Source of the DNA: Yuukianura sp. NJ FZ-2021 | Taxonomy: Eukaryota | Assembly (NCBI GenBank): GCA_046563655.1 | Contig: CM102285.1 | Location: 9,920,001-9,984,000 of the forward strand | Direction of reading: 5' to 3' | Length of the DNA: 64,000 bases | Shown here: one piece after another, positions 3,539 to 64,000 of the stretch | Position numbering within the stretch: position 1 is the first letter of the stretch | How the letters are laid out: every line of letters begins with the position of its first letter | Program-made: the position numbers and the translations under genes | Notes under the pieces: model-generated | Told to the model about the DNA's origin: nothing | Database searches by the model: none | What the model saw: only the letters and a program-made list of their open reading frames with translations

Positions 3539-4978
3539 TCAGTCTTCAATTTGAATTCGGGGAGCTCGAAGCGTTTTGCCTTGTCCAACGAAGGCTTGGA
3601 ACGTTGAGGCAGCGTTGGTATGTTCTTTTTGTTGAGCAAAATAGGAAAGGTCTCTGACAAAGCTCAGAGTCCCGGGTTCGTAGTCAAAGTCAGGAACCCC
3701 ACGACTCAAAGTTGTCACCTTACGCACTTCCTGTTCTCCGAAATTTGTCTCCTTGCCATCCAATCTGAAATGGGCACAATAGTAGAACAGGCCGATAAGA
3801 AGGGACAAAATAATACATCAAAGCAACAGAAGAGAAGAATTACTTACCGTTGCCCTGCTCCGCTGAAGGCTCCGCCAATGTTGTTATCCGGAATTGGCGC
3901 GTAACTGCATGACATTGGTTCAGTCTCTTCCTTTGGCGTTGCGACCGGCTCAACGTATCCGACAGGCGGAGCAAAGTCAACCTGAGGTACAAGCGATCAA
4001 ACGATTATAGTCAGAAGAACTGTCACAAAAAAGCATGCTGATAAGAAGTAAGAAAGTGATCTTACGTCCATATCACATTCGATACAGCATACGGCTGGCC
4101 CTGGCTTTGTTTCCAAAACTTTAAGGTCATAGACTTTGTCGTTATAACGAATTGCAATCGTATCGCCAGTTGTAAGACACGCATAGTGTCGTAAAGCGTT
4201 TTCAAGCATGGCCTTTGGATTGGAAATATCCAAAAACTCCACGGATTGCGGTTGAAATTTTGAGTAGCTGGCAATCGGAAGAGACACACTTTCGATTTGT
4301 ATTTGATCTCCTTCTCCGAACAGTAAGTTTTGCATCATCTAAAGTAAATTGTTACATGATTGATTACGAAAAATCCTGTTAGTATTAAATAAATTTTTAC
4401 TAACCCAATATGGAAGGTAGCACATCCCTTCCTCGGCAACAAACTCAAGTACCCCGCAGTGACTGCTGCGCCCAAGAGAAGCGTTCGTGATTTTGAAGAG
4501 CATTGGGTAAACCGTGTTGAGCTGTGTCAAAGTCTCCAGGCAAGATGGCGGTAGAATAACTGCACACAAATAATTCACATGATTGGTTTACATGCACCTT
4601 TGAAATATTAAAGCTAGAAATCTTACTTTTTCCTCCGCTCTCAACGTTTTGTTTATCGTTTCCAGGCATCATAGCCGCCGAGTACGCTCGAAGATTAACG
4701 TTGAAGTGCCGAGAGGCCATATTTGACAGTCCAAAATAGTTGACAAAGTTCAAGGGTCGTGCATTGACAACGGATCTTGCTACACGCTGTCGATCTCGGC
4801 TTCGGTGCTGTATGGAAGTATCATCATTAAAAACAAAATGACTGGGTACGGTAACTGTAGATGACAGGGCCGACAGGGCAGCAGCCAAGAAACTGTCCGA
4901 ACTAGCAACATCTTCTACTTCATTTTCCGGATGATCGTCGCCCGCGGCATCGTCATTTCCAGGATTCGGGTTAGCCAT
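3539..4978 (-). CDS. UFD1: Ubiquitin recognition factor in ER-associated degradation 1 (p97 cofactor), ~379 aa
   Basis: Exons 4978-4627, 4559-4405, 4338-4066, 3981-3848 and 3764-3539. Motifs: [58 protein letters not shown] and two SHP boxes ([18 protein letters not shown]). The true start codon is uncertain. Confidence 0.95.
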
Positions 4979-17300: not shown

Positions 17301-20300
17301 CTCTGTGTACGCATGAAAAACAAATTGACAGAAAACAATTTTGAAAGGCAGCTTACTTATTAAATCAAGGCAGAGTAAATAACCATTTATTTTATATTGT
17401 AATTATAAAAACTAACCTGAATATTCAGTGCTGCTGATGATGCATGCCGTGCTTAGTAGCAATATATTTACCAAGTAATCCAATATTAACGCACTAATAA
17501 ACCCAAACCCAAAGAGCTTAACTGCGGTTGAGTAAAAACGTGAGATTTTGAAGTATGGCGAGATCTACATAGATTGTTAGGAATTTGGATCAAAATGAAA
17601 ATAAAGGTTTAGTTCAAAATGGAAAGCTCCGTTTCAATTAATAAGTGTGTATTTGAGAAAGTTAAGCTTAAATTAATAAGTGTATATTATTTACAAAGGG
17701 ATTCGTTATTTGAGGATAATCTCCTACTAAAATGAAAGTGTTTACACAACATCCTTGCTTTTTCACTTTTACCCAAACGTTTGCTAAAATCCACTTTCCT
17801 CTTTGCTTTTCAGGTCTCCTCAGCTGGTGGTCGATTGGTCAGAGAACGAAGGCGAGTAGCCAAAATTCTTCTGATTTTGGCTCTGGTCTTTGCATTTTGT
17901 TGGCTCCCGTATAGTGTCATCAGTCTCATCCTTGACCTCACTGCCAATGCGGAAAAAGACATTCGTCTCAACCAAGAGTCCGACGTGTCTGGAATTCTGG
18001 CTCTAGCGGGTGAAATGCTTCCATTTGCAATTCTGCTAGGACATGTCAATTCTGCAGTCAATCCACTTCTCTATTGTTTGCTAAGTAAAAACTTCAGAAG
18101 GAGCATTGCCGAAATGATTCGTCATCCCACGCGAGCCGCCCGAGGACGACAACACTGCAAGGTATAACTTTCTTTCAAACTTTCTCATTGAAACGGACAA
18201 GAACTTTTCAATTTACTAAGTCTAGGAACTAAGTACCGTAAGAATAAGTTATTCCAGGCTCAAGAAAACTTACGTACCCTCAAGATCCTGTAGGTGTTAA
18301 TGAACCTCAGACAGGATGGAGAGTTGTCTAGAGCTAACAGGTTTGTTAGCACTTTAGCTCAACGTTAGGGATTTCACTTCCCGCAGACAATTTACTTCCG
18401 TTCATTTCCAGAATGAACGATCTAGTTTCCTTTCCCTCATAAAACGTTTGGTAAACATGTTTTAGTAACCATAAAATTTGAAACATATTTCACCCAAAGT
18501 CTGCGGCTTGAGATTTGACTCTGCTAGGCTACTCTAATTTTCACTTTGAATAGAACTTGCATCTTTTTCATAACTTTGAACATGTGTTTACCCGCTCAAG
18601 CTACTGGCGACGGCCATTATCATTTTTGCGCGGCAACTTTTGTATTCCATTTCTCACTGTCTCCTGCCTTCTCCCTGAGCGTCTGTCTCCCGCTTTCTCC
18701 CAAAGTGTCTGTCTCCAGCTTTCTCCATGAGTGTCTACTCTTCTAACTTATTTCATCCCCTAAAAGTTTTTCCAAGGCTTAAGCACTAAAATGGCAACAA
18801 AAGACTTCTGACAAAGTTACGCTATTAAAAGCAACTTTCAAGTCAAAAGGAATACAAATCAGTTTTCTCATGCAGCTACACTCCTTTACCAACCAACGCC
18901 TCTGGGTTTCCGAAAGCATTTGGCTAAACTCCCAGGCAATACTTTCTATGCAGAATGAGCTTAATACTTTCTATGCAAAATGAGCTTCCTGAGAAGTGGA
19001 GGAAAGTTAGACAATGAAGGCTTTAGTAAGAGGGGGCGGAAAGTTGAATTTGAATTAGGAACTAAAATTCGAAACGACATTTTGTTCATGGCATTTGTGT
19101 TACTACTATTTAAAAGTAAATCCTGAATCCAAGCTGGACATTCAGTTCACTCAGTGAACTGAATGCAATCCTAGGAATACGAGTTACTTGAATAAACAAT
19201 GTTTCTTACAAGGTTAGTCGTAAATCAATTTTAAGTATTTAGAAAGTAAACATTGAAGTTCAGAAGAATTCTGAAACTTGAGAGAATTTATTTTTCAATA
19301 CGTTTGCTACATCGTCTCTGTCTAAGGAATGCTTAGGCATGACACTTTCCCGATGAAAGCTGAAAAGTCTTATAAAAATTACAAATCGAACTGTAAAACA
19401 TAAAAGACAGCAGAAATTGAAAATTAGGCAGTGTACTCACCATAAACAATTACAAACCTTGGCACCTTCAACCGACATTGTAGTCAGAAGTAAAAGTTAA
19501 CTTAAAATGCAATGGAAAAGGTACAACTGATCACAAAAATGAATCAAAAAGTGAAAATAGAAAGGGAAAAATACTTCAGTCATAAAGCCAATTACATGTT
19601 AAGGTTATTGACTTGCGAGCTTGTGCGGACATTGGCCCTACAACGCGTGGGTTGTATAACCTTAAGGGGAAAGTCTCTAGCAGTAAATAAGGTAAAGATG
19701 AGCTTGTTGTACTTTTCTCTTTTACTTCACTTCATGAACTTCTTGAACAAAAAACGAACAAACAGGAATTTCGATTTCAAAATGTTTTTATTATTAGACT
19801 GTGGGTTATAAACCTAGCTGTAAAAAAATACTCATGATATGGGCCATAACTTTATTTATATGCCAGAGGCATAAACTTTCTTCCCGTGGAAAAAGAAATC
19901 AAACAAAGGAATTTTTCATTCCAAAACTTTCTCAGATTTAGAAAGCAGCAGCAATCGGACTTTTTTTTTATCACAACTACCATAGATACGAAAGTATTTA
20001 ATTTAAAAGCTCATCTTTTTAAGCAATATTCTTTTGAAGTTCCGGTTTTAGTAGCATAACTAATACTACATTAAGCTTAGACTACTTTGGCTTACTTTGA
20101 AGAAGCCTTAGGAGGCCTCCTAATGGCGAAATAACTGCCGACATGATGTCCTTTGAGCAGTTCTGCTTTATTACTGTTACAATAAAGATGAAACACTGAA
20201 GCTTACACTGCGTAGATCTACAAAACCTTTTTTAAATCATCTTTAGTGAGTTCCTATGAAATATTTATTCTCCTCGAGAGTTAAGATGTCATAGCATGTC

Positions 20301-24637: not shown

Positions 24638-27497
24638 TTATTTCCCATGCTTTGCACAACAAAACTTGGTCCCACCGGCGTTGTAAACACGAGCATGTTT
24701 TGTTAGGAGGCTACTTGCACTTTGGACAGACACAGAAACGTTTTCTAGGTACGGCATAATGTCATCCAGCTTCCACTTGGACTTGGCAGCAAATAGAGCC
24801 TGGAATCGCTCAGGAACAGATTCTGGCAAAGTGCTTTCTGGAAAATACCATATCATGAGTGGAGACCCTTCAGTAGCATCCGTGACTGCCAAGCCTTCTA
24901 GGTGCTTCAAATTGACTTTCAGACCTACAACGTAACACAAAACGAAAATAGGAATTCCGAGTAAATGTGAATAAGACGGCAACAAAAGATCATAAAAGTT
25001 GAAGCAGGGCGTAAATCTTTGACGATCTGGAGCGAACGGGGAGAGCAAAGCAAAGTCAGTGTCTAGTGTCTCAGTGTTACTTATTACTGTAACCATCGCA
25101 CTCAAACTGGAGAGTATTTTATTGAATAAAAGCAAAGTTTCAGAACAGCGCATCTATGAAAAGTGAAAGTGAAGAAAGTTCTAACAAGGAAGCACTCCAG
25201 CAGCGAAGTTGGATCAAGAGACAAGCGTTTAGCAATAAAAGCTGACTAGAATACTTACCGCGTGGAACACTTTCACCCCAAGCCAGAACAAAATCGGAGA
25301 AAGTGAACTTCCCTCCTGCCTTCAGAATTGTCACGCCGAGGAATCTGCTGATCTCGAACTCGTTCATCTCATACAAAGCTGTGCCTAGTGAACAAGTTTA
25401 TAATTTAGACAGTGATTAAGGTTGATCTTTTACAATTTCTCTTTAGTTGGAAACCGAAATCGACATTTCTAATTACTTTTGAAAAACGATCGGAAGAACC
25501 TCAATATTTTTGCACTCTAAACTATTCCCGGAAATCATTTTACGGACCTTTTTGGCTAGATGCTGGTTGGTCGTGGTCGGAAGTCCCAGCATTTTTAGAC
25601 ACAAAGAACCATTGGAAAACTTTCTCCAGAACAAATTCTGGATGAAGTTCACTGAGATCACTCACGACAACGTCCTTCTGAATCTCCGTTGGGTTCCAGG
25701 AATATGATTCAACACAGTCCAAAACTTGTGACAATGTACGGAACAGGTAATCATCTCCGACCAATCGAATGTTCCCTGCAAAAAGAACCAGATATGCTAA
25801 CATTTTTATTTATACCTAGAACTGGAAACCTTAGGCAATGTAAAAAAAATATCATTGCTTGGAAATTGTGGACATGAGAAGCTAGAACGAAGCCTTAAGG
25901 GGTAACGATTTCCAGAACTAAAACCAATATCAGTGCGGATTATTTACGAACCATCAATCTCAAACGTCCTCAGGTTGCGAGTAATGTGATCACGCAGTTC
26001 CATTTCACTGCATGGAATTCGATCCAGCAGTGTCTCGAATGTTACAAAGTCTTTTTTGACGGTTTCGTTTTCATCAATCTAGACAAAAAAACAAGTCCGA
26101 ATAAAACATTGCCATTAAGAAAATGTCAACGACCGTTGAGCGAGCAATCATGGAACAGTAGATTACTTCAATTTCATCAAATGCCAACTAATATTTTCAA
26201 CTTAATTGAAAAGTTCAATTCAATTTTCCTGTTCACGACGGGGCTTCTCCGCAGCATGATTCGCGATTCAATCATTTTCATTTGTAATACTACAACAACT
26301 ACTGTAGTCTTTTTTTAAACTTTTGTTTCAGCGATACAGTATAATAGTGAACACAAGGAATTGCCTTGATCATGATTTTTTATACCTCAGGATCTTCCTC
26401 TGTTGGACCATTGTACGACGTCGTTTCCAGAATTCCTTTAATTCTAGACAGGTTTGGCTTAATTTTGGTGAGTTCGTAGTAAGAGTGGGCTATGTGCAGA
26501 ATCTAAAGCATCAATTAAACATCAATTAACTCAGCTTGACCCTCTCAAGGACATAGTCTTTCGCTTCGTTAGGAACAGAATGTGTTTAGAAATCCGGAAT
26601 CAAATGACAGACACTTGAGTACTACATCCGTAAGCTCCCTGATCCCGCAATACAATCCAAGTTGACACCCACGTGAAGGTGAAATACTAGAAACACTCAC
26701 AGGTCTCTTTCCAACAAATTGATTTCTGCCATCGTTGGTGAGCTGTGGTTGAACCCTTAATGCTGGATCAGAGCCTTCCGCTTCTTCGTCATCAATTACC
26801 ATCGGGTCTGGTTCAGGTTGCAATGACAAACTGTCCAACTTCGCCATATCCTCTGGGAAAGATAATTGCTTAAAAATCAATATCGAGTTAGATGTTTCCA
26901 CATTCTTCATCTCGAAACTGGAATTATCTGTGCACAGAACAGCATAGTCATCCTCTTCCCCTCGTATTACTAACCTAAAGAAGAAAACAAATGATACAGG
27001 TTAAATTCAAAATCAACGTATTTGCTTCTCGTTAAAGTGAAAACAGTTTAATTTGAAATTCAATATGCACAATTACAAAATGTATGAACTACGGACAAAT
27101 AATGCTAAAAAGGAAACACGAACCTGTCTCCGACCTTAATCGCATTTTCCACTTCCTTATTGAGTTCAAGTAACCGTAAATCGGATCCAGCGAACTCCTC
27201 CCCAAAAGTAATTTCCTGGTTAATCAAATACGAATCTTATAGAAAACCTAGAATAAATGAAACCTAGATCATGTAAACGTAAAGTTCTTTCGTTGTCCAT
27301 CGTCTGATACACTTTTCAGCAATTCATCGACGTCTTTCTACACTTATAAAACATGATGACATGACAAATGAAACCCTGACTGGGACTATCATTCTGAATT
27401 AGGTGTTACTCACCTGGCTTAATGGTAAAAGTTCATCCAATGACAATTTTGCACTTTTCAGGATTCCAGTAATTTCTTCAATGCTGCGGCTACACAT
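24638..27497 (-). CDS. DSCC1: Sister chromatid cohesion protein DCC1 (CTF18-RFC subunit), ~444 aa
   Basis: Exons 27497-27414, 27215-27124, 26974-26701, 26502-26386, 26078-25952, 25775-25548, 25384-25259 and 24924-24638 splice in frame. Motifs: AKLSLDELLP, LRLLEL, LVIRGEEDDYAVLCT..FEMKNVETSNSIL, WGESVP, LPESVPERFQALFAAKSKW..DIMPYL and LLTKHAR. Confidence 0.92.
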
Positions 27498-42701: not shown

Positions 42702-45700
42702 CTACAAAGTAACATAGGTAGGTGAAGTGGCTACACCACAGTTGTTGTCCTTTCGAGACATGAGAACGTAACCATCGTTGCCCCAGTAGTTGGACCACGA
42801 ATTCTTAACGAGCCAATACGGTTCGTTCTTGAGCGTTCCGTAACCCACGGCCAACACGGCATGATCAAGTTGGTCTTCTTTGTTTCCTGAAATGACCAGT
42901 TTCAAATTTAGATTAAATTTAATTTTCGACCTACGTGCGTAGGTTTAGGAAACAAGTTCACAAAACATTTTGAAATCAATAATATTATAGAAAAGACGTG
43001 AGAAATTATTGGATCTGAATTCCAAACTTGTAGTTTTCTATAAAAATACTATTTTGTAGTTCTATATTTCTATAAATTTGAAGTTTTTATAGTATTTTGA
43101 AACTGGTAAATTGCATTGAGTGGAGAGTTAAGTGTGGTGATAATGAAATTATGAACCACTTGGTCCTGCAACCGTGTCAAACATTGCTTGAAACATACTA
43201 CTAACCCTAACCGCAAACCTTCACTTGCCAAATAACCTAGTGGTGAAAGTTAATTTGTCGAACTCACCACAAGTTGGTTCGAAGTAGACGCCGTTGGCGT
43301 AGAACGAAAATGACTTGTGTGAAGCATCGATGGCAACAGAAATAGGGCCTTTCTCTGCAATTGCCAACTTCAGAGCACCTTCATCTCCAGAAGTGACATT
43401 TACGTAACCTAGATCGAGAAAGAAAAATTGATCAAAGGAGGAAAAAACTTTATCATTTTTTTCACTAGAAATCAACGCCAGGAAACTTTCAACTCAATTT
43501 AACCCAACTTTATTAATAGTTCCTTTACCCGTTATTTTAGCGGCCATGTTCGTGTTATTCGCAACGTGACAGAAGCCATCCTAATGAAAGAAAAAAGAAA
43601 CAAATTGTAATTAACTCGGGTTCATAAATTTCACACAGGGCGGCAGAAAATGAAGGCAACGCTTTCCTAGGGAGTTGATTTTTAAGTCGTGCTTTCGCGA
43701 GTACTTGATAATTAAAATCCAAAAAGTATTGGCAGCATCTTCAACATGAACCAGCGCTTCGTCTAGTATATTAGATTTGAAAGTCTTGTGAAAGCAAGAT
43801 TTAACAATCAATTTCCGATGAAAGCGTTACATTTATATTTTGGCGCCCTGTGTAACCAATCTTAATAAGAATAAAGATAAGTGCAGAAAGTAACACAAGG
43901 AAGAAAAAGTAATTATGGTTAACCACAGAATTTCAGGTTTTAGATTGAAAAAGTTGAAAATTTTGATGAAAAGGAATCAATCATGCTCTGAATTCAATTA
44001 AAGCGAATAGTAAACAAAATAAAACGTTTATGAACTTTTCTCCCTCATGAGTCAGGAGTAAACAAAAAGTTTGAATGAACCTTCGTGACTATCGGGAGCT
44101 CCTTCTTGTTTTTCTGCTTTTGGCTTCCTTTATACGTAAAAAAGTAGTGAAAGTGAATTTGACACTTACAATGCCAAGGTAGGGTCCATAGGCGTCTGCT
44201 GCCGGGATTCCGCCATGCTTGAGCATCCACTGGTAGGCTCTGAAGTCCTCTCCGCCATCACATCCATTATTCCCTTCACCCCAAGAACAATCAATCAATG
44301 CCTGGAATTTATCAAAATAGAAAACTATAAGCGAATTTCTTCTTTTTTCTACTCTGATGGGCTACATATACCGCTCCACTACTTGTAGTACCTACGTTTG
44401 GCGCAGTGTTTCAGTACTTTCATTGGAGAGGTTATATTGTGTCTCGTTTTTAAGACGGCACTTTTTGCTTTCGTCGCTGTTTCGCTCCTAGTGCGAAGCT
44501 TATTGAAAAACTAAGTTTAAGCACTTTCTCCATTAGGTTTATATAAAAAATTTCAAAAGATTGATTAATTTCAATTCCTAAGGTTAATTAGGCAGATTTT
44601 TTTTTTTTTACAAATTTGAAAAGTGTTTTCTAAAAAATGCAGAATTTAACAATTGTCCGTTAAGCTTCTCGATTTGAAAAAGTTATTGATTGCGGCTAAT
44701 GTATGAAGTCGTACTTACGCCACTACTGCCTAGCAGTATGAAGAGTTTTCCTCTGCATAATTTTCTACTTTTTTAAGTTTGTTTTAATATGTTTTAGAGA
44801 GCAAAGGTATTTTGAGAATTTGGAGAGGAACATGGTTTGGTAGAAAGTCCAAGTTGATATGAGAGTAATATGCGTAAACACTAATTGTTCGACGGAATAT
44901 TTTTAATTGAAAATCGTGTTCCTCGTTTGTGACAATTTGATGAACGTGAACATGCCTGCCACGATGTTATGCGGGAAGTGAAAGTAAAAGTAGCTCACCT
45001 GTTGCGAAAGACGCACGAGTTCTCCTGTTTTCAAAAAGTGTGCTCCTTCCACTGCTCCAATTGTTCTATACATTTAATTAAGAAATACTTTCAAAAACCT
45101 TAAACAAACTTTTGAAAGTTAGTGACTGACTATCCACAAAAACATTTTCATTAAAATTGTTAACAAAAGGAAGGAAGTTACCCAAAACTCCAACAAGAGC
45201 CGCACACACTTTGATCTTAAAGGAAAACAAAAATCGGAACTTTAGTTCTCTTTTTGCAAACTTTCTAGTAAAAACTAAAGTTAAAGCAAAAGAAAGTCAA
45301 ATCTATTGTTAACTCAGATTCTTAATGCTTAAGGGTACCTTTAACGGGTGTGACAGCTCCATACAGTCTCCAGTCAATGCTTTCTGGTAATCCGGCAGAT
45401 TCAATTTCCTTGGTGGTGTAGGGAAAAGGATTTCCACCGTTATAGCCGCGGGAGTAGAGCTTTCCACGTAGAAGCTAAAAGGAGAAAGCCAAAAAAACAT
45501 TGAAATAATTAACAGGGAAACCGCTACACTTTCCTAAGAGATTGTATTCAAAACGCGTTGTGTAACCCAAGCATCCCCGGAGCCGCGGCTTTAATATCTA
45601 CATAACGCAATACGTAACATGTACCATAGCGTAGGTGTCAAAACCGGATTATCACGCACGCAGTTCTTCAGATCTCATCTCTCACTTTTTATTGAAGTGG

Positions 45701-48700
45701 AAGTTTTCAGAAAAGCTGCTCAGCTCCCCCAACTTTCTCAAAAAACAAATAATGCTTGTTGCAAGATTTTTTTTTCCGAGAAAATGTTTCCAGAAAGCTT
45801 TTCCATTTAGTTTTTCCACTGTTTCTTGGTTAAAATAATTGTCGTTTAAATCAGTTTAGGTGAGGTTTATGTAACATAAGCTTTGTTTCCAATTATGCAC
45901 TTACTCAGAATTTTTTTCATAAAAAAAGATTTACCTTTCTCTCTTCGTCAGTCTTGTCTGCAAGGTGATTGATTGCAAGTCGATAGCTGAGTCCTTGTCG
46001 ATTCTTGCTATGAACAAATCTAAAGTTGTGCCGAAAAATGTCACGTCGTTTTTCCATTTCCTTGTCATGTTTGTATCTCTTGTTATGAGTATTAATGAAG
46101 TCAACGAATTCATTTGCAATATGCTCATCATTCCCATGGATGAACTCTGCAATAGGATTGAATGAAGCCTTCGTCATGTGATGCTCTGCTCCTGGTCCAG
46201 GGAAGTTTCCACAGGATAAACCTTGATAAAGAAAAGAATGAACAAACAGATTGTTACTCAGCAATCAATTTTCAGCGAACGACACGAATTACGTTTCATT
46301 ACTTTGTCTAACTGAAAAGCGTATCATTTTTCTTAAGAATAAGGGACCCGCTTTTAGAAGGCTCACTTTCTTTAATACATGTTTACACGGGACAAAAAGA
46401 GGGTCGTATGACAACTTCAACAAATAGTGAAAGCCTAGGCGTCGAATTACTCCAGTCGAAGAAAGTATTTGGAAAGACAAAATAAAGGAAAGCGTGAAAC
46501 CAGAGAGCGAACAAACAGACGGCTAATTTGAGCCATTTCTGCTTCACATAAAAGGAAAACCGGGAAATACACGCAACTAGAGATGGAATCAGGAAGGGGA
46601 AGTAGCAATTCAAATTCCCGAGAAAGAAAAAGGCGCTGCATCTTCTTGCGACTGAGTTTCTTTATCTAATAACGTCTCTAACTTTTTTGGCTTTGCAATC
46701 CGAAATAAGGTTTCTGCTATCTTAAGATTTAGGTGTGCTAGTAACCCTGGCTAATGAAAAAAAAATCAATCAATAACGATAATAATTCACTGGAGTTCGA
46801 TTTTTTTTCCTTTGAAACACAATTTTTGAGACAGCAACTCTTCGACAAAAAAGCAATTCAAGACTGGAGCAAAATAACGCGGTTGAAAGTTTTAGATTTT
46901 CTTTCCGTTTGGACAGCTAATTGCATTTGCTACGGGAATTCGGTATTGGTTTCCCTTCTAGTAATGAGATACTGCTTACCCTCGAGGATAACTGAAATTT
47001 GGTTTTAATGAGATACTGCTGAGTCCCAGCAATACCTTAAATTTTGATTACAAACTACTACTCTAGTACTCTTGAAACAACTCCTACTTTTGAAAATGCA
47101 TAGGGTGTAACCATACTAAATTCAGTTTGCGCAGACTCTGTGCTCGCGCGTTATAAAGCAACGCTAGGGCCTCGAATTTCTCCGCGGATTGTGGATTAAC
47201 CCCAAATCCCCAGGCAGAGTATCAAATCCCCGGGAAAAGTCATACACTGATTTTCCAAGGAAACTTTTAATATTTGTTTAATAAATTGGAAAAGTTAATT
47301 TGTGAAGTGTAACTACCTGCAGGTACTCTGAAGATGTCTGGTGAAATGGGTTCTCCAGAAAAGTAGTTGTAGTTGAGGTAGTAGTGGTCGTAGTGTGATC
47401 CCAGCAGAGTGTTGTAACCTCTCATTTCATACTTCACTGGAATCCCAATTTCTTCACTCGGATCTTCTGCAGACGCCTAGGATGAAAGGAAAAAGAAAGC
47501 ACGAGGTGTCTTATTTAGTTTTCTATTTACTATTATTAAATTCCTTCTTCCTAGAAACTGAAGAGCACTCTCTTTGAAATTCATTTCAAGGAGGCTTTTT
47601 TAATATTCAGCACAGATTCTGTTCCAGAACACATTTTTCTAAGGGAGGTCAATTCAATTGAAGAAACCTTCTTCACGAAAGTGATTGGAACTGTGGCTAC
47701 TATTACGTGACTCACCACTGATCGAATCCAGTAAAAGTACTTGTTCACTTTCTGTCCCTTGGTTTCCTCCAACTTGTACTTTTTACAGACATGGCCATTC
47801 ATGAACTCCCTTCCGACATACTAAATCAACAAATCCAAATACAACATAAACAATAAAATTCATGCTCGAGCTAAAATTTTGTGTCAAAAACTCTAAAATT
47901 GCAAGTCTTGAAATAAAATAAAACGCAACTTTTTCAATTTGGAACAACAAAGAAAAGTGGAGAAAGTCTACGACTCAAAGATAAAAATGAGACGAGAGAA
48001 TTTTATAACATTGTTGACAGAGTTGGTGGTTCATAGAAATGTTGATTCTGTTACCGTAAACCCAGTGGGATTGGGAATAATGCTCTGGGCTCCAATTTTA
48101 TTATCCTTTGTACCGTTGACCTCGAAGCAAGTGAGTTGATTCGTGACAGTGTCTGTCGTCATTGGCACAATCTTCCTCATGACCCCAAAGTCACCTTCAG
48201 TTCCCAGTTGAAAAGTTTTCGAAACTCCTGAATTTGATGAGCAAAGCCAAACAAAATTTTGTTAATTCTCACTTTTTTCAAAAAAACAAAAGAAAATTTA
48301 TTATTGCCACCCACCGATTAGGAGAGGAGAAAGGAGAAAGCTACAAAAGGTGAGGATTTGTAATTTAAATGAAGAAAAAGATGCGATTAACCTTCAGTTG
48401 AATATTTTTGGTACCATATTTTGATTTGAATTTCAAAATTTTGAAAAGTATTTCCAAACATCACGAGTTGTATTACCTCCATAGAAATCAATTCGACTGA
48501 CGCCAGAATCTTGATCGACCCAAGCAGCAAATGGTTCTTCAATTTCAGCATATGGAATGTACAGGGTTCCACGAGTGATGTAGACTGAACTGATCTTTGG
48601 AAAATCATCTTCGTCAACAGAGTTGTTGTGTACACCACATTCAATGATCCCTGCTAACCAAAAGCCGAGGTTCACTAAAGTACTTTGATTAAAAGCTACT

Positions 48701-49552: not shown

Positions 49553-50526
49553 CGTAGCAGGTGAAATGGTCAAAACAATTTGGCCAAAAGTGAAATGATC
49601 AGAGGTGAAAAGGCCAGAAGTGAAATGGCCAAAAAGTGAAAATATCAGAATTGAAATGGCCAAAAAGTGAAAAGGCCAAAATCTAAAAACGCCAAAAAGA
49701 AAATGGCCAAAAAGTGAAATGACCAAAAAGTGATAACGCCAAAAAGTGAAAAGGCCAAAATATGAAAAGGCCAAAAAGTGAAAAGCCCAGAATTAGGAAA
49801 AAATTACTTTCAGTGGGTAACTCGCATTTTCTTTATTTTTTATTTTTATTTGCGAATATGACCCCCTGACCATGAAAAAAAATTTTTTTTGGCCCGCTCT
49901 CAAAAATTTCGAATTTTCGGAAAATTATGAAAAATGCAATTTCGCTATAAGGGCACACGTTAATTTTTTCTCAAAATAGGTCTTAGCTTATATTTTGTTA
50001 GGTTAGGTTACGTTTTTAAGTGCTTAAGCAATTGTGTTATAGCATTTAGGCTAGATTTGGTTAACTTACAAAAAATGGAATTTGTTTGTTTAGAAAAAGT
50101 TAACATGGAGTATTTCCCCATTTTTTACAAATTTTAAATTTTTAAATATTTATATTTTACAAATTTTTAAAAATTTGAAATATTTCAAATAGATCGCAAA
50201 AAATATATTTTCGTGGCAGAGGGTCATATTTGTATTAAAAAAATGTAGAAAACCGAGTTACCCACTGAAAGCATTTTTTTTCCTAATTCTGGTCTTTTCA
50301 CTTTTTGGCCTTTTCATATTTTGGCCTTTTCACTTTTTGGCGTTTTCACTTTTTGGTCATTTCACTTTTTGGCCATTTTCTTTTTGGCGTTTTTAGATTT
50401 TGGCCTTTTCACTTTTTGGCCATTTCAATTCTGATATTTTCACTTTTTGGCCATTTCACTTCTGGCCTTTTCACCTCTGATCATTTCACTTTTGGCCAAA
50501 TTGTTTTGGCCATTTCACATGGAATC
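49553..50526. mobile_element. Non-autonomous foldback DNA transposon (974 bp) with long, subrepeat-rich terminal inverted repeats
   Basis: About 270 bp of near-identical inverted arms, more degenerate out to ~330 bp, built from ~10/20-bp units such as GCCAAAAAGTGAAAT. The 8-bp direct repeat ATTAATAG flanks the element at 49545-49552 and 50527-50534. No transposase; AT-rich spacer containing GTTAGGTTAGGTTA. Confidence 0.88.
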
Positions 50527-51615: not shown

Positions 51616-51990
51616 TTAGTTTCCTATTCTTCTAGCGATGAAGCTCTTGGTATGCGCCATGTAGCGATTGGTTGTGGAACGAAGGGACTGCAGGAGCATC
51701 GCATCTCTGGTGACCTTTGAGGCACTGGCACGATGATTTCGGTCCATGTAGGACTTAAGTGCTCGTTCTTCCCAGAGCATTGGTTTGGGCATCTCAGGAT
51801 GTCCACCAGTAGCCCGTTCATTCAAGTAGTCGATCATTGGTCGGTAGTAGTTTGACCCGTAATCGTAGTTGTACTCGTACAGTTGACTTTTCGGACGCTT
51901 CCAATGTACGTTTGCCCTCACAGTTCTCTTTGGAGCTTCTCCGGCAAATGATCCTGCTGAACTTTCCAATTCAACTCCTCCGTCACCCAT
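51616..51990 (-). CDS. Small protein (~124 aa) with flightin/miniparamyosin-type WYR-like motif; putative thick-filament-associated muscle protein
   Basis: Acceptor TTTTTCAG precedes 52002, with ATG at 51990. The motif HWKRPKSQLYEYNYDYGSNYYRPMIDYL...PKPMLWEERAL resembles the WYR domain (W.RP...Y...Y.Y..NYY...IDY....P.P..W.ER.L). A probable upstream UTR exon lies at 52808-52504. Confidence 0.8.
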   Translation of the reverse strand: MGDGGVELESSAGSFAGEAPKRTVRANVHWKRPKSQLYEYNYDYGSNYYRPMIDYLNERATGGHPEMPKPMLWEERALKSYMDRNHRASASKVTRDAMLLQSLRSTTNRYMAHTKSFIARRIGN

Positions 51991-54900
51991 TGCTAGTCGG
52001 ACCTGAAAAATAAGTAAATCAAAATATAAATAACAATAATCAACAGCAAAGTTTAGAGCTTTGTAATTCAATTTTGAGTGAAAGCGAAAAATTGATATTC
52101 GCTGAAGGTCGAATCTTATGGTAGCTTTATAAAATCAAAGCGCTGATTGTGTCTACCTTATACTTTAGAATTAAGTTAGCTTTCTAACTTTCTCCTCACT
52201 GTAATGGAGTGGTAATTGTGTTATGAGAATTTCATGCTTCTATTATTTGCACTACTTGTTAGTTTGGAAAAACTTCAACAAAGCAGAATTTGCTAGTTTG
52301 ATTGCAGTCTACAAATTACGTTTAACTTCTAAATTACAAATTGATCTCTTCTGTTTAGTCTTGTTAAAACTACCGTAACTCGCTGCTAATATTAAGGTTA
52401 AGCTTATCTCAAGTAAAGATGTTTGTTTTATGTGCATTTTTTTAGTTTTCAAAAATTTTTGCGAAATGAAAATTTAGTATGGTTTCCTTAAATTAGTACT
52501 CACCTGAGAGGATGTAGGTCTCGTACGAAGTCAAGAAGCGGATGAAGGATGTAGTTTTCGCTGTCTGTGAGATGGGAAGACGATTCGGATGAAGTAGAAG
52601 CAGAGACGGATGTATTTTCCACACTGCCGCGTCTTTTTAGTCCTCCGAGATTTATTGGGCTCAAATCTATGACTATTTCGACGAAGGATTTAAGCAGTAA
52701 AAGTAAAGCTGGAGGGAACCCGGGGGAGAGCCAGTTCGGATTCAGATCTACCGAGAAAGTTTATGGAGGCAGGCCATAACTAATAGGGGACATCTTCACG
52801 AGTACCATCTAAAACATAGAGATCAGCACAAAAAAAAGTTGGATAGAATTGGGAACTTTAGCATTACTTTTTCCAAAATGGCATCATGACTTTCCTAATG
52901 CCAAGAAACAAAAACTTGGGGAGAGTTGTGTTTTTTTATAAGTCTCGGATTAGATTTGGTTTTTTTAAGAAAAGAAGCGAAAGGAGAATGAATGCTCAGG
53001 ATTCCGGCACTGCTAGTAACTACTAACTTTTTGAAATGATCTAAAGAGATTCCTATCAGACTATAACATATTTCCCCTGTAAGATCCATGTCATCTCCAG
53101 TAGCGCCTTTGTTCACTAATGCCAAATTGTTTCAAAACCACACCAGAGTTGGTTTCGAACGTCACGGGCATCTTCTGGGCCAAGAAAAGTGTTTCAAGAT
53201 CACTTGAACTTAGGCTTTGTGCTAAAGCGGGTTTCAATTGTGGAAATGAACACCAAAAAATGTTACTTATAAAGTGGAATTTTTCATTGTTTAAAAAACG
53301 GTCCATTTGTTTGTTTTAAAACATTTGGCTTCACTCACTGCATTTTTCTTCCAACACGCGTCCTCCAAAAGTCGGGCAATATAAAAGCTTCAGTACAGAA
53401 CATAAATTCTGATTTGAACTTTAAATTTGTTACCATCAAGGCGAAAAACACAATTAGCAAATTTTTCATACGCTAAAAGCAGTCAAAGTCTTAGCCTTTT
53501 CATTTCATCTAGACAAAGAGAAGACATTTCACTTTTCAAAAGGAATGTAAAAAAAAAAAAATGAAAATCTTAGATATCGTTGCGAAATTTGTGAAAATAA
53601 AAGTAACCATTTTGAACAATGCCCTTTAGATGTTTAGTTTGAAGAAAGTTTGTAGTTGTCATCTCGTAATAGAGCATTAAAGCCCCAAAAAATTATAATG
53701 ACTTGTTTCCACAGGTTTTATTTCATAATTCATAGATTTTTACTTTTTAAAACAAAATATTTTTGAAATTTAGTTTTTGAAGTTTGTTTCAAAGCTAATT
53801 TGACTTACTCTAGCCGTCTAGACTGAATTCCAAGTTACATAACTAGAGCACAGAGGGATGGCAATCATGGAAGTCCTTGGAGCGTAGAGAAAACAAAAGG
53901 ATTACTGGAATTTTGGCAATGTTTTGTAATCCATTGTCTCATTTTAATTAACATTACCAAGTCTCCATGTCTTTGGACGCTTCAAAAGAAGAGAATAAAT
54001 CCGCAACTAATTGTGTTCAGGAGCCTTTGCCAATTGGACTCAAACAAGAATTTTGAAGGTCAAAGATCAAAAAGAGAGCTGTACAACTGGACGTGATGTA
54101 GTCTTGGTCAAACTTAGGTGCCTTCGGGTGATGCAGCAATTCAATTAATTGTTAAAAATAACAAATCAGATACAGACAATTATTTGACGCTTACACAATA
54201 CTCAAACGACACTAGATTATAATTTGCCTCCGGACTTTCCTTCCTTTCATACGCATTAAACATTCAAGCATTGGACCAGACGCATATACACTCGCAACAG
54301 TGTTAAGCAGTTGGAAAATTAATTCATCAGTTTCCCATTTTCGGCAATCCTGTACTGTACTCGGAAAGCCATTCATTTTGAGTATTTTTGTTCGTTTTGC
54401 TGCGAGCTGTTCAAATGATATGCTATTCAAACAGGAAAACAGGATTGACTTTAGCACGCTTTTAGAAAACAAAATTGATGTAACCGGATTGGCTTGACGT
54501 GTGGGACAGGCGGTTAGGTTTATTTCTAGATTTTCATTGAATTGGTTTGGTATATATTTCCGTTTTAATTTTTATTTCTTCAAAACGCCTAAGGACATGA
54601 ACTTCCGGGTACTTTAAACATTTAAGTCTGTGTTATGATTTTATCAATGATAAATAAAGAACTGCACTAAAGTTAGCATATCATAGACAGAGTTATGGTG
54701 GTAAATTGTTACGATAATTTAACATAGATTTCCCAATCGCCTATAGCTCATAACGTCAAGATTAATCTACGATGTACTTCTATAAATAAATTTACACTTT
54801 CTACACAGAGCTTCAGCTTTAGATTCTAAACTTTTTGGCAAGAAGAATTTAAGCACTATTCAGCTAATCTAACAGACTAAGAGCTTAAATTCAAATACGA

Positions 54901-55106
54901 AAATTAATTAAATTAATTAATAGACTGCCTCCCACATGCACTAGTTGTAACACATTTTAAGCGTTAAATTAGCCTTAAGCCTATCTTTCACCGGTAATCT
55001 GAGGTGCTATGCAAATGCAACTTGAAATCCTAAGAAAAACAACAATTCGCCTTTGCAGAATTTGAAAAGTTACTTTCATTGTGCTTTCTTTTGAAGTGTT
55101 GGTTGT

Positions 55107-56203
55107 TTAATCTGTATCAAACGTAGTTTTGACAGAGCGTTTAGAAATTCTGACGCTCTTGGTTCCTCCAGTAGTTGCTGGAGTGGAATCAAAATCATCA
55201 AAGTAAGATTTCGTCTGTGTGGGAGCCAGTTGGAAGTCATCTTCCATAGCTTCTGCAATCCTTGCCTTCGCTCTAGCTCGAATTCTTTCAATTTTTGCTT
55301 CTGTCGATTCCGGTAGTGCTTCATTAGCAGTTCCAAAATCCAAATCTTCCTGTCGATTCGTTCGAAGTTTTGAGCGAAGCTTTGAAGCTTCTCCAAACTT
55401 GTCCGCTTCACGTTTCATTTCATCCATTAGCTCATCTGCAGTGGCCGAAGCATCAAATCTGCGTCCGCTCTTTGTTTTAAATGAATCTTCATTCAGAAAA
55501 TCCTCGGCTGCTGCCCTGGTATTTCCGTCTTTTCCTAGCCTTTTCCCAGCTCGACTTTGAAAAAACTCATCATCAAATGGATCTTCCAATCCCCTGAATC
55601 CTCTTGGCTCACTTTCATTTCGTCCAGAACCAAATCTGGAACTACCTTGACCTCTAGCCCCAGCTCCAGCACCGGCAGCATCCAGTAGTCGATCTCCAAA
55701 AGAAAATCGAGATTTTCCAAAATCACTGAACTCATCATTCGGGTTGATCCGGGATCTTCCAAATTCAGTATCTTCAGATGGACCAGTACGCGTAGCAAAT
55801 CTTTCACTTGGACGACCAGATCTTCCGAACAACTCATCCGTCAACGACGTTTTTCTGGGTAATGTCCCATAACCTGCAGTTCCGTACGATCCGTACTAGA
55901 CAAACATGAAAATTTACAAAACATCGTTACTTTTTGTGGTTCAAAAATGTTATATAAAAGAAGTAGACTGTGAAATCACAAAGTCCAGAAGTAGAGAAAA
56001 GAGAAAGTTTGTTTGACAGTTCTCACGATGGGATCTTCCGCAAATCTTTCAGCAAAAGTTTTTGCCTTAGGTGGACTTCCGGCCCGACCGTGGGATCGTA
56101 GCTCAGCATGCTGCAAAAGCGGCTTGTAGTAATGCTCGCCTAAGTTGTAGTTGTAGTCATAGACACGGCTTGGTTTCTTGTAGGTGGGTCTGCTCCGAGA
56201 CAT
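55107..56203 (-). CDS. ~321-aa protein with N-terminal WYR-like motif and charged low-complexity/coiled-coil tail
   Basis: Exons 56203-56027 and 55895-55107 (GTGAGA donor, TCTAG acceptor, phase 0). The N-terminal YKKPSRVYDYNYNLGEHYYKPL...PPKAKTFAER aligns without gaps to the neighbouring WYR-like protein from the first YxYNY onward. Confidence 0.8.
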
Positions 56204-58296: not shown

Positions 58297-61039
58297 ATGG
58301 CTACACATCATCGTAGAGCCACGGTTGGACTTTGGTTGCCGAGTGTAACTAATATCAAAGAAGCCCTGCTGGAATTACGAGATCATGAGTAAGTTGTTAC
58401 TGCTTGTTTACAATTTATATCTTCCCGATTTGTAATATTGTGGAATTCGAGGAGCTGGGAAATTTTTTTTAGTAAAAGTGTAAATTCAATTGCTTAGATT
58501 CGGATACCTGTGCGTCAACATTGTTCAGCCAGAGAAGCTAGCAGTCCAGCTTAATGAAGATATCAACGCTCCTCTAAAGGAGGCTTTCAGCTGGAATGAC
58601 TTGGCAATATCATCTCATGGTCAGTTTTAACATCGGTTTACGTTTAATTTCGATTGGTAAATAGTTTTATGTACCTTATAGAGTGGAGGTCAGGAGTGGT
58701 CGGAATTCTTTCTGACGTAAACGAAGAGCTGCAAAGTGAAGATCAGCGACGATGGAAGAAAGCCTGCGAATTAATTAATCAGCAAACCAGTTACGCCCTC
58801 CATCTTACTCTTCCGGCGATAATTATAGATCTATCGAAACCAGCCGAGTTTGTCAATCTTGCCAACCTAATCAACACAAGGCTGAACAGCAGTATGAAAA
58901 CTACGACTGCGGTAACGCGCTTAACTAAACCAAATTGGCCCAAATAATACTACATACTATCACAATTTTTGCGTTTAGTTTTGGGTGAAAGTTCCGATCG
59001 GTAAACGACCAAGCCAAGAGGATGGAGGGGATAATGTGGAAGAACGGCATCCGTGGAACATGTAAGTGACAATTGACCTATCTGTATACATTGTTGACGC
59101 CTATATTTGACACAAGACAATTGGGAATTTATGTTGTTTGTAGATGGAATGACTTCCGAACTCTTTGCGAATTCCGGAAAGAAGTTGTTCCCGTGCTGGA
59201 AATACAAAGTGACCTTCCTAGTGCTGAAGTACTCGATCGATGGCTTGGTGAACCAGTGAAAGCGATTTTCATTTCAGCAGGTACTCATAACTATCACTAA
59301 CCACATTATAAGTTCAGAAAGTTCTGAGTTCACAACTAAGAAACTGACCGATAGTATGCGAACTTTACGATTTTAGATACCTTTCTGACAAATGCCGAGG
59401 GATTTCCATGTCTCAGTAAAGCTCATCAAAGGATCGTCAAGAAGTTTATAAAGCTAAAATGTCAAATTGTGATTCAAGTGAACGATTTCTTACCAAATTT
59501 GAAAGCATATTCTCGCTATGTTGACTTCCTTCATACTGCTGCAAGGGTAAGAGTGACACTATAAATCCGATACAATCAGCGAATCAGCCTACAAATCAGA
59601 TAATCTTTTCAATATCCATTTTTTCTCGCTTCAGGAGCAGCATACAAATGCACCGTACGATGTAGAAGCCTGTGCCTCTGGTTATGAGGACTTGCTTCAA
59701 GTACCATTACAGCCTCTTCGCGATCATTTAGAATCAGGCACATACGAAGTATTTGAGAGGGATCCAATCAAATATTCGATGTATGAAGATGCAGTTTACA
59801 AAGCTATTTTGGAACGTCCGGATACTGGAAAGCTGTAAGGCAAATGGAAATAATTGACATAAAAGACATCGAAATCGAATATCTTACAAAAATATACTCT
59901 AAATATTCTAGTATTATCATGGTTGTTGGAGCTGGACGAGGGCCACTCGTCGTACGTAGCCTTGCGGCTGCTGCCAAAGCCAGGCGTTCTTGCCACGTTT
60001 ACGCTGTCGAGAAGAACGCTAATGCTGCAAATACTTTGTTTCATAACAAAACAAGATTTTGGGGAACCTGTGTTACAGTGGTGTGTGCTGATATGCGGGA
60101 GTACAATCCACCGGAACTGGCTGACATGATTGTTTCTGAGCTGTTGGGGTCACTGGGGGACAACGAGCTTTCTCCAGAATGCCTCGACGGGGCACAACGA
60201 TTTCTGAAACGTATGACACTTCATATGCTTGTTGTAACTTTTTACAGCATGGAATTCAATTGCAGTAACTGCTACTTTAATACTTCTAGCCGACGGAGTG
60301 ATGGTTCCAAAGAATTACACATCTTTTATCGCTCCTTGTATGTCGATAAAATACTACCAGGACATTTCTGCTCATCCAGATATTTCGAAGCCCAAATTCT
60401 CCAGCTTCGAGACTCCTTATATCGTGCACATGTGCAACGTTTATAACATTGCTCCGCCACAAAAGCTGTTTTACTTTTCACATCCAAATTACGGTAATAT
60501 TAACTATCGTATGTCCTCAAAAATTGACTCGGAGCTGTGAAAACTTCTTACCAAGTTTTGAATATGTTCAATTTCGTTGTTCAAGAGTTGAATAGAGTTG
60601 AATTAGTGTGAATATGTTTTGTTTTTGTAGAAGCGAACCATTCCAATGACAGGGTCAAAACGCTTCAGTTCAAAGTCCCTCAAGACTGTATTCTCAATGG
60701 GTTTTCTGGATACTTTGAGTCCATATTGTACGGCAATGTTCGTATGAGCATTCACCCAAAGACTCACTCGCCAGGAATGTTCAGCTGGTTTCCACATTTC
60801 CTGCCGCTACGCGTATGTTCTGTAAAGTTGACATTGGATTAGTACAAAGTGTAACTGATACTAGGATATTTGATCCGCAGGAACCCGTGAAACTTACGAA
60901 GGGAGACACAGTGACGGCTACATTCTGGCGCAAATCTTCTAAAACTGGAGTTTGGTACGAATGGACAATCACCACACCCAAAGCGCTTGGAATCCATAAC
61001 GCAAATGGAAGATCTATATCTGGAGTGATGGAATTATAA
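58297..61039 (+). CDS. PRMT5: Protein arginine N-methyltransferase 5 (capsuleen/Dart5 ortholog), ~625 aa
   Basis: Eleven exons splice in frame: 58297-58388, 58498-58619, 58682-58911, 58979-59061, 59144-59280, 59377-59546, 59635-59834, 59912-60210, 60290-60493, 60631-60812 and 60881-61039. Motifs: [39 protein letters not shown], double-E loop [25 protein letters not shown] and VWYEW. Confidence 0.97.
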
Positions 61040-61677
61040 TTTGGAAGACTTAGCGTAACTAATCAAGTATTCTCTATCCAATTCGGGTTAGCTACATGAA
61101 CTACATGGTTTTCAGTTTTTTTTTACGAAGACGACGTACTGTTTTATTCTAGTATAACTTGTTTAACACATTATTATTGTTATTTAATAGTTTCTGTCAT
61201 TATGTACTAAATAAAAGATACCGGCGTTAGCTAGGAACCTGTCCTGAGCATGCATTATTTTTACAGCCAAAGTTTTTTTGAAAGGTAGTGCAAGGTTGTT
61301 AAAAGTTAAAGTTTGCCCTTGTTCTTAAGTTTTTCTGATTGATATGTAGCTTCAATAAGGCTTACGTCTGATTATAGTGGCAATTTTTTGTAGCTTAAGT
61401 GCTGCAAGCTCACAATAAACATGTCAAATGATCTGGCAATACTAAATAAGCATTACTAAATAAAAATAAAATCTGGATCAACAGGTTAAATTTTTGAAGT
61501 TAAAGTTCTAAAAAGAAATCTAAGTTCTAAGACTCTATTACTAGTAATATCGCCATGATTGGTTAAGTCTACTTTTTAGTCATTTGTCTATGATGAGAAA
61601 CTAAGTTCGTTACGTTTCACTACATCAATGACGCGACGGTCCTTCGATTTACGTTTCCAGTTTACAGCTTGTATCAT

Positions 61678-64000
61678 TTATAGCTTGGGCTTATGCTCCA
61701 GAAGCAATTGAATGACACTTTCATCAGCCAAGGTCGAGATGTCGCCTAAAACAAGACGCGCGTTTAGCAAACTATTTTTGACACCACTTAAATTGTTATC
61801 CAGCCATCCTTACCAAAATCGTCATCATCAGCAGCAACTTTCCTCAGAACTCGTCGCATTATTTTTCCACTTCTGGTTTTCGGAAGTGCTGGAGCCAGTT
61901 GAATCACTTCCGGAGTCGCAAACGCACCGATTTTCTCACGCACTGCACCACAATGAAATTAAACCTTTGAGTAATTATTAAAGTATATGTTCATTGCGTC
62001 AGCTCACCTTTGAGTTTTAGCTCTTCAACGACAGTGCTATTAAATTCAAATCCATTCCGGAGTGTTACAAAGCAGTAAGCCACCTCTCCTTTGACGTCAT
62101 GATAAGCAGCTACCACAGCACTCTCTGCCACAGCTTTGTGTTCGATTAGAGCCGATTCCACTTGTGCAGTGGAGAGCAAATGACCCGAAACATTCAGCAT
62201 GTCATCTACTCGGCCAGTAATCCAGAGATACCCATCTTCGTCTCGACTAGCACCTGAATATGAATATAAAAGACAGACATTATGATGAGTAGGCAATTCA
62301 AAGTGAATGCACGGTCAAACTGAATCCAAAGTTCCTACCGTCACCAGTCAGGAAGTATCCCGGAAACTTTGTAAAATAAATGGTTTCAAATCTGGCGTGA
62401 TCGCCATAGACGGTTCTCATGAGACTTGGCCAGGGTTGCGAAAATACAAGATAGCCTTCCCCTGAAAACACAATTCAGAAGATAACCAGAGAATTAAGTT
62501 TCTCTAAAACATTACAATCTATAGGATCCATACCTGGCCCTTCGATAACATTCCCCTCTTCGGTCAACAGCGCTGGAACAACTCCGAAGAATGGAAATGT
62601 AGCGGAGCCTGGTTTAAGGGGAATTGCTCCTGGAAGTGCAGTGATGACATGTCCCCCGGTTTCGGTTTGCCAAAACGTGTCAACAATGGGGCAGTTTCCA
62701 TTTCCCACGACATTATGATACCAAAGCCAACTGCAAAAGACGATTACACATGATATTTACAGAACACGAAGTGACATAAGAGTAAGAACGAAGTTTTAAC
62801 AGCACTATTCGACTTACGCTTCTGGATTGATGGGCTCCCCAACAGTGCCAAGGGTCTTCAGTGAGCTGAGGTCATGCCTGTAAAATAAAGCACATTTAAG
62901 GAAATGCGTAATAGTGAATTACTGCCAAAATGTACTTCTCTTGCATACTTTGTTACTGCCGCGTCTCCAAATTTCATTAAAGAACGTATTGCCGTCGGGG
63001 CAGTGTAGAATTGATTGACTTTGTATTTCTCGACGACTTCCCAGAATCTTGATTCCGTAGGGTGAAACGGAGTACCCTCAAACTAAAAGATAGAAAAATC
63101 TGTTGAAAGTGGGGTGAAAAAATTGGTAGTCAATTTTACCATTATGGATGTTGCGCCGTTGGCCAGTGGACCATACAATAAATAGCTGTGTCCTGTAATC
63201 CACCCCACATCGGCAGTGCACTGAAAATGAAATACGTTTAGGGGTAAGTTACGTACAATTCCAGCAAAGCCAACCTAAGCCACTAATATTTACCCAGTAG
63301 ATGTCTCCAGGATGGTAGTCGAAAACGTACTTGAATGTCGTTGCTGTAAAGATCATGTAACCAGCGGTTGAATGAAGAACACCCTGAAAAGCAATGTTTA
63401 GATTTAAATTAAACGAAGATAGTACAGTGTATTTACTAAGGTATCAAATCATACCTTGGGTTTCCCGGTAGAGCCGCTATAAAAGAATTAAACAAGATCA
63501 GTTTACTTTGAAATGAGAAGTATTTTTTAGATATTCTTCAATTAAAAGTAAAGTAATTAATTACCTCGTGTACAACATAAACAGTGGATCCTCCGCGTCC
63601 ATCCATTCGGGTTTACATTCTTCTTCAGCAGACTCCATTAATTCGTGATACCATTTGTCCCGAGTTTTATCAAATGGAGACTCATGGTCGTATTGCTTTT
63701 TCTTTCTTGGAGACTCGTTGCCAGCCTGCTTGCCAAGGTTCACTGCTAGACGAGGTAGATGCTTCACTACGACGCAATGCTCAATTGTGTGGCCTCCATC
63801 AGCACAAACTTTGATAGCCTATCAGAACAAAGGTTCGGAGTTTAACGATTAATCTATGAAAGCTCTTGGATTTTTTAAAAAGAGTGTTTGCCTGATCAGC
63901 TATTTCTTTCAGGATGATAATTTTATTCCCTCTCCAGACTCCATCTGCAGTGACAAGCACTTTGCACTTCGCGTCCAACATCCTGTCTCCAAGTGATGCA
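61678..64000 (-). CDS. ACSS2: Acetyl-CoA synthetase (ACSS2/AcCoAS-like), 5' part outside the window
   Basis: Multi-exon. Motifs: [83 protein letters not shown] and [16 protein letters not shown]. Stop TAA at 61680-61678. Confidence 0.95.

Follow-up and report, generated by a model that had tools for sequence, protein, structure and literature searches.

A springtail flightin gene adjoins a gene for a conserved, apparently unstudied WYR-domain protein, a candidate component of the thick filament

Reviews describe flightin as being defined by its WYR domain, a Tyr-rich stretch of about 50 residues bounded by Trp and Arg. Experimental papers report that the domain binds the myosin rod in Drosophila, that truncations on either side of it do not prevent the incorporation of flightin, that the isolated domain co-sediments with the rod (PMC8301185), and that its loop is the portion closest to paramyosin in insect filaments. 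Moreover, R87 and R124 of Drosophila flightin form salt bridges with E1554 and E1577 of myosin, respectively (PMC10573858), and the C-terminal element of flightin acts as a second anchor according to cryo-electron microscopy work (PMC10573858, PMC9820631). Here we compare with these descriptions two neighbouring genes, A and B, in a stretch of 64,000 nucleotides ('the window') of the springtail Yuukianura sp. NJ FZ-2021 (assembly GCA_046563655.1, contig CM102285.1, positions 9,920,001 to 9,984,000). Gene A encodes an already known protein, flightin, whereas the WYR protein encoded by gene B is conserved, has apparently not been studied and makes a good candidate for a component of the thick filament.

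The product of gene A is, to judge from its sequence, a flightin orthologue, C-terminal element included. It is encoded by a single coding exon (51616..51990, minus strand) and comprises 124 aa, 29 of which lie ahead of the Trp of the WYR domain. Only two sequences in the PDB match it at E<=10, namely the flightins of Drosophila (8u8h_A, E=1.7e-17, residues 21-122) and Bombus (8ew5_A, E=1.1e-12). On profiles built without gene A, the WYR domain (His29-Arg76, 51763..51906, minus strand, aligned to H84-R131 of Drosophila flightin) scores 111 bits, and the C-terminal element (approximately residues 95-120, 51631..51708, minus strand; the PDB match extends to residue 122) scores 48 bits, a value reached by none of 2000 shuffles. 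A quick tree of WYR domains places gene A inside a flightin branch of 14 rows, together with proteins of Orchesella and Folsomia (support 96 in the Shimodaira-Hasegawa-like approximate likelihood-ratio test, SH-aLRT). Pfam has no family for gene A. Two of its 25 homologues carry an informative name: ODN04188.1 of Orchesella is named Flightin, and XP_021964245.1 of Folsomia is Flightin in UniRef and 'paramyosin, short form' in RefSeq.

This double name probably explains why the initial annotation took gene A for a miniparamyosin head without a paramyosin rod. A reading of gene A as a stand-alone miniparamyosin head, with the pair as a cluster of an uncharacterised family, could invoke the RefSeq name as well as the similar automatic names given to insect proteins that resemble gene B. 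We consider it highly improbable, as gene A aligns from one end to the other, C-terminal element included, with flightins of solved structure, lies in the flightin branch, and has as its homologue the very Folsomia protein that UniRef calls Flightin. Neither gene, moreover, has the paramyosin rod of a miniparamyosin: gene A stops after 124 aa and its relatives count 109-154 aa, and the tail of gene B matched no myosin-tail family in Pfam. To judge by names and lengths, the homologue searches brought up no miniparamyosin sequence. As a flightin, the product of gene A would bind the rod of myosin within the thick filament through its WYR domain together with its C-terminal element. Flightin was already known in wingless hexapods. 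An Atlas search with the Orchesella flightin (P0021) returned flightin clusters at 0.87 and 0.84 with a myofilin cluster second at 0.85, all below the bar of 0.9; the remote likeness between flightin and myofilin that these values suggest is a lead only.

Gene B lies 3.1 kb from gene A, on the same (minus) strand, and the similarity between the two products is beyond chance. In a single BLASTP comparison 18 of 52 residues are identical (E=3e-9). On a flightin-WYR profile from which the window protein was left out, the first exon of gene B reaches 38.2 bits (best of 2000 shuffles: 10.6), and gene A scores 37.1 bits on the B-family profile, again with no shuffle out of 2000 reaching the value; the scores are thus significant in both directions. 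At the level of families, a profile-profile comparison of B with flightin gave 97.5%, and a PDB search with the B-family profile had Drosophila flightin as the best of seven rows (E=9.8e-5). The proposal of the initial annotation that two same-strand neighbours have a Tyr-rich motif in common, and that both are old paralogues of the WYR type, is therefore well founded. The spacing of the motif, which had been called identical, is so from the first Tyr onward, the stretch from YY to ER counting 25 residues in either protein; ahead of that Tyr gene B has a one-residue gap, so that the identity is limited to the downstream part. For the remainder the two proteins are indeed unrelated, as had been stated: the tails have nothing in common, the lengths are 124 and 321 aa, and G, R, D, A and S are abundant, at 9.5-11% each, in the charged tail encoded by exon 2 of gene B.

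On the basis of its sequence, gene B is a true WYR-domain paralogue and not a flightin. Its WYR-like domain (Tyr8-Arg53, 56045..56182, minus strand) keeps the aromatic and the Pro, Glu and Arg positions, and its exon 1 has matches of 62-79% in four unnamed proteins, 318-341 aa long, which also align across the whole tail. On the profile of the flightin C-terminal element gene B scores -1.5 bits, which 53 of 2000 shuffles equal or exceed, and none of the seven B-group proteins reaches 10 bits. In the quick tree the pair parts company, with gene B outside the flightin branch that holds gene A. Pfam returned for gene B sub-threshold chance matches only. The replacement of both Trp residues of the motif (W to Y and W to F), put forward in the initial annotation, holds as a family trait for the second position, which is Phe in all nine B-group rows and also in 3 of the 15 rows labelled flightin. 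The first Trp is retained in eight of the nine rows and is Tyr in the window copy alone, and the Tyr is thus peculiar to this species. The position of R87 is basic in 9/9 and that of R124 in 7/9 B rows, the window copy having Lys at both. A motif resembling a protein kinase A site (RRxS) follows the domain in only four of seven B rows.

The predicted structure of exon 1 of gene B is a helix-loop-helix with a predicted local distance difference test (pLDDT) value of 76, from an alignment in which 14 of the 92 rows are flightins. Compared with 48,161 chains by VIA, the model had two flightins on top (Z 5.3 and 4.6, next 3.4), the alignment being partly circular. Three observations weigh against taking this as independent support. 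Flightin is the sole Foldseek match, and it is weak and partly circular (E=0.97, root-mean-square deviation 5.1); the WYR part falls to pLDDT values in the 40s when the seven-row B alignment is used alone; and the deposited model of the flightin WYR domain itself started from AlphaFold (PMC10573858). Because of the low scores and the partly circular test, the fold is consistent with a WYR domain rather than proof of one.

Gene B consists of two coding exons on the minus strand. Exon 1 (56027..56203, 59 codons) carries the WYR-like domain and was delimited by the gene model and the alignments of the relatives; exon 2 (55107..55895, 262 aa) encodes the charged tail, which is predicted to be mostly disordered with conserved islands. 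The intervening intron (55896..56026, 131 nt, GT..AG) is straddled by the extension motif ERFAxDPxYG, through which the relatives read. With the GTGAGA donor the product counts 321 aa, and an alternative second donor would give 324 aa. The model is supported by the full-length relatives (318-341 aa), which align to both exons in order. Three conserved islands can be distinguished in the tail, all on the minus strand: a DRLLDxxG motif (55671..55694) that is common to an unnamed insect family, 73 of 107 members of which fit the pattern; a predicted helical region ending in RARxKARxxExED (55236..55442, coordinates mapped by hand); and a basic C-terminal motif, KSVRISKR (55131..55160), which is kept across the B group and echoed among insect members. 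The full-length model of the gene B type has a pLDDT of 50, and the model of the relative (P0029) has helices at 208-243 and 249-271, a block with pLDDT 74-87.

It is the tail that likely links gene B to this widespread insect family. With the WYR part masked, hhalign aligned the B and insect tails at 94.2% over 135 columns with the three motifs in order, and at full length the value was 99.4%. With the insect profile, 222 proteins were collected at E<=0.001. Among the best 120 of these matches, from which taxa and names were taken, we find beetles, lacewings, bugs, thrips, lice, wasps, ants, moths, caddisflies, crickets and dragonflies, and no Drosophila protein. The proteins are called 'uncharacterized' or 'hypothetical' there, or bear automatic names such as 'paramyosin, short form', and none of the names gives a function. 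Pfam gave sub-threshold chance matches only for the 18 insect-family proteins submitted, and an Atlas search with a family member led to arthropod clusters without a name, at 0.94, and to no match in fold above a template modelling score of 0.39 by query. Several observations argue against the link. On the profile of the insect tails, that of the window gene B itself gets no more than 7 bits; the helical motif of the insects has no significant score on it (407 of 2000 shuffles); the WYR tree, which has 66 columns and most of its forks open, does not unite the insect family with B; and the insect proteins are without the second WYR half as well as the first Trp (kept in 1 of 20 rows). Given these losses, the full grip of the flightin type is not kept throughout, and a likely orthology of gene B and the insect family would rest on the tail.

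Considering the WYR-like domain and what is known of flightin, we think it reasonably probable, with a fair margin for error, that gene B is a second, non-flightin accessory protein of the thick filament that binds the myosin rod. The helix-loop-helix of its WYR-like domain would dock on the rod at the flightin site or at one like it. The long, mostly disordered tail, with its three short conserved motifs and helical stretch, would take the place of the C-terminal anchor of flightin and may recruit other partners or link filaments; as the second anchor is missing, gene B would not stitch myosin layers together in the way flightin does. The protein would accordingly be expected in muscle and bound to myosin. 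A search for MEF2-like sites lends this expectation no weight, as the three sites found in 3.1 kb on the plus strand, set against 0.41 per kb, are no clear excess. The main rival to docking on the rod is that the WYR-like domain of gene B has changed partner and binds paramyosin, another coiled coil or a non-muscle myosin II, possibly outside muscle. The proximity of the WYR loop to paramyosin in insect filaments, reported in the literature cited above, would fit such a change, and so would the retention of only the first WYR half in the insect relatives and a B tail that has nothing in common with flightin. Nevertheless, B proteins of the springtail type retain the basic residues that contact myosin together with the aromatic pattern, and the WYR proteins characterised in the cited literature are all muscle thick-filament proteins. 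We therefore judge a change of partner to be rather unlikely and prefer binding to the myosin rod.

The family to which A and B belong appears to be larger still. The B profile found 160 representatives at E<=0.001, and grouping the best 150 of them by eye yielded the flightins, the B group, the insect group, a group around Penaeus LOC122246372 and at least five unnamed groups. An extension of the domain, ERxAxxPxYG, occurs in 6/7 B proteins, in 12/13 of the Penaeus group and in three unnamed groups, including one (G67) in which all nine members have it, but in none of 26 flightins. B, the Penaeus group and G67 share one weak branch of the tree (SH-aLRT 83). This quick tree was built on 66 columns and leaves 52 of its 97 inner branches open, the deep forks unresolved; five of the 105 rows (P0156, P0164, P0179 and P0183, which have long Ser-rich inserts, and P0159) were dropped beforehand, and P0155, given the label flightin by eye like all group labels, fell outside the flightin branch. 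We take G67 to be a group of mites or other chelicerates, which is a guess, and the Penaeus group is possibly the decapod paraflightin. Of the proteins in G67 (P0067, P0075, P0081, P0091, P0156, P0164, P0179, P0183), some have the Ser-rich inserts inside the domain. Several further groups of WYR-like paralogues (proteins P0085-P0186, groups G76 and G85) have distinct tails, and the tail of P0124 contains an ARAR..DLE.E helix resembling that of the insect family.

Non-flightin WYR proteins are not new in kind. Soto-Adames et al. reportedly described in 2014 flightin in springtails, its decapod paralogue paraflightin and a related motif in chelicerates. Gene B might consequently be the hexapod orthologue of a described paralogue, either paraflightin or the protein with the chelicerate motif, so that its family would be known and only unstudied. 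The extension motif, distributed over the B group, the Penaeus group and G67 and missing from the flightins, and the weak branch that unites the three groups would suit this possibility. The tails of the Penaeus group and G67, however, do not match that of B (hhalign 0.3% and 1.5%), and paraflightin is not known to have been reported from hexapods. On balance we regard such an orthology as possible but not as the more probable reading.

A synteny scan of 88 candidate stretches yielded one locus (L001), in which flightin stands beside the same cathepsin-like gene as in the window; the locus ends 1.2 kb upstream of flightin, too short for B to be seen. The neighbourhood of A and B could be limited to this lineage or accidental, and not a relic of the founding duplication. 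With no second locus in which both genes are readable, and with a tree in which neither A nor B has the other as its nearest group, this has something to recommend it. Yet two members of so small a family 3 kb apart on one strand are, we infer, unlikely to have met by chance, and the longest contig is of exactly 12,165 bases for two proteins, a flightin that is 60% identical to A (P0024) and a B relative whose tail is 30% identical to that of B (P0034), a hint that both genes may lie on one contig in a distant relative. We hold a late or fortuitous adjacency to be possible though not the better guess, and an old A-B gene cluster to be plausible but unproven. The wider proposal must be worded more tentatively: flightin may be one branch of an older arthropod WYR superfamily, B an overlooked hexapod-wide thick-filament protein, and the pair may preserve the place in which duplications gave rise to flightin, to B and to the head of miniparamyosin. 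This whole chain we regard as possible rather than probable.

Locus L001 also helps to delimit the flightin gene. Its homologues begin as gene A does, and in L001 an acceptor immediately precedes the ATG. A probable 5' non-coding exon of flightin lies at 52504..52808 (minus strand, donor at 52503, upstream limit uncertain); in the frame that would join it to the ATG of gene A a stop is found 10 codons upstream and no Met, and the donor in L001 is placed much as that in the window. Within this exon a non-coding stretch of 57 nt is conserved between the window (52638-52693) and L001 (706-755) at 77% identity and is possibly a promoter or untranslated-region element. The cathepsin-like cysteine protease gene is multi-exon, encodes an I29 propeptide and a long N-terminal extension, and lies directly downstream of flightin in both cases (~43200-48700, minus strand, in the window; 3268-5688 in L001). 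Between it and flightin the window holds a foldback element resembling a miniature inverted-repeat transposable element (49558-50521), with 246-nt inverted arms that are 98% complementary, lie 472 nt apart and consist each of some 12 repeats of a 16-nt unit; L001 has no match to the array of this unit. Upstream of gene B (58600-64000) the plus strand carries PRMT5 and the minus strand an AMP-binding enzyme that is probably acetyl-CoA synthetase. Pfam further recognised GAS8-like (1240-1947), UFD1 (~4000-4340), rhodopsin-family G-protein-coupled receptor (17736-18167) and Dcc1 (24638-25153) genes, and tblastn found no third WYR copy in the 64-kb window.

The pair as a whole had been presented as uncharacterised. 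This seems to apply to gene B, the relatives of which are unnamed, and not to gene A, which is the known flightin; the literature searched, which covered few subscription papers, gave no account of gene B, the insect family or the A-B pair. The main point of interest, mainly for specialists in muscle and gene families, is that a conserved non-flightin WYR protein adjoins flightin and has likely counterparts, to which no function has been assigned, in beetles, bugs, wasps, moths, lice and damselflies. If gene B binds the myosin rod it would be a component that the arthropod thick filament has been missing, a rod-binding protein of insects would have gone unstudied, and gene B could explain what occupies the site of flightin in muscles that lack flightin. 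Flightin would then trace back to a duplication in an older family instead of being a stand-alone novelty.

A comparison with the described systems summarizes the position of both genes. Gene A resembles the flightins of Drosophila and Bombus end to end, in the WYR domain as well as in the C-terminal element, and the main thing it is without is the long N-terminal region of the Drosophila protein, which has 84 residues before the Trp versus 29 in gene A. For the head specific to miniparamyosin, a WYR-like motif is suggested by the automatic names 'paramyosin, short form'. The Penaeus japonicus LOC122246372 group has a complete WYR-like head and the extension motif, as in B, and an unrelated tail. 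The unnamed insect family, with Chrysoperla XP_044731856.1, Ischnura XP_046401390.1 and Tribolium LOC657683 as examples, has an order in common with gene B that runs from an N-terminal Tyr-rich half-WYR via a DxLLDSVG motif and a RARL-type helix to a basic C-terminus. Finally, gene B is like flightin in the WYR-like domain only, and differs from it in the absence of the C-terminal element, the Phe in place of the second Trp, the ERxAxxPxYG extension and a tail of its own of 260 residues.

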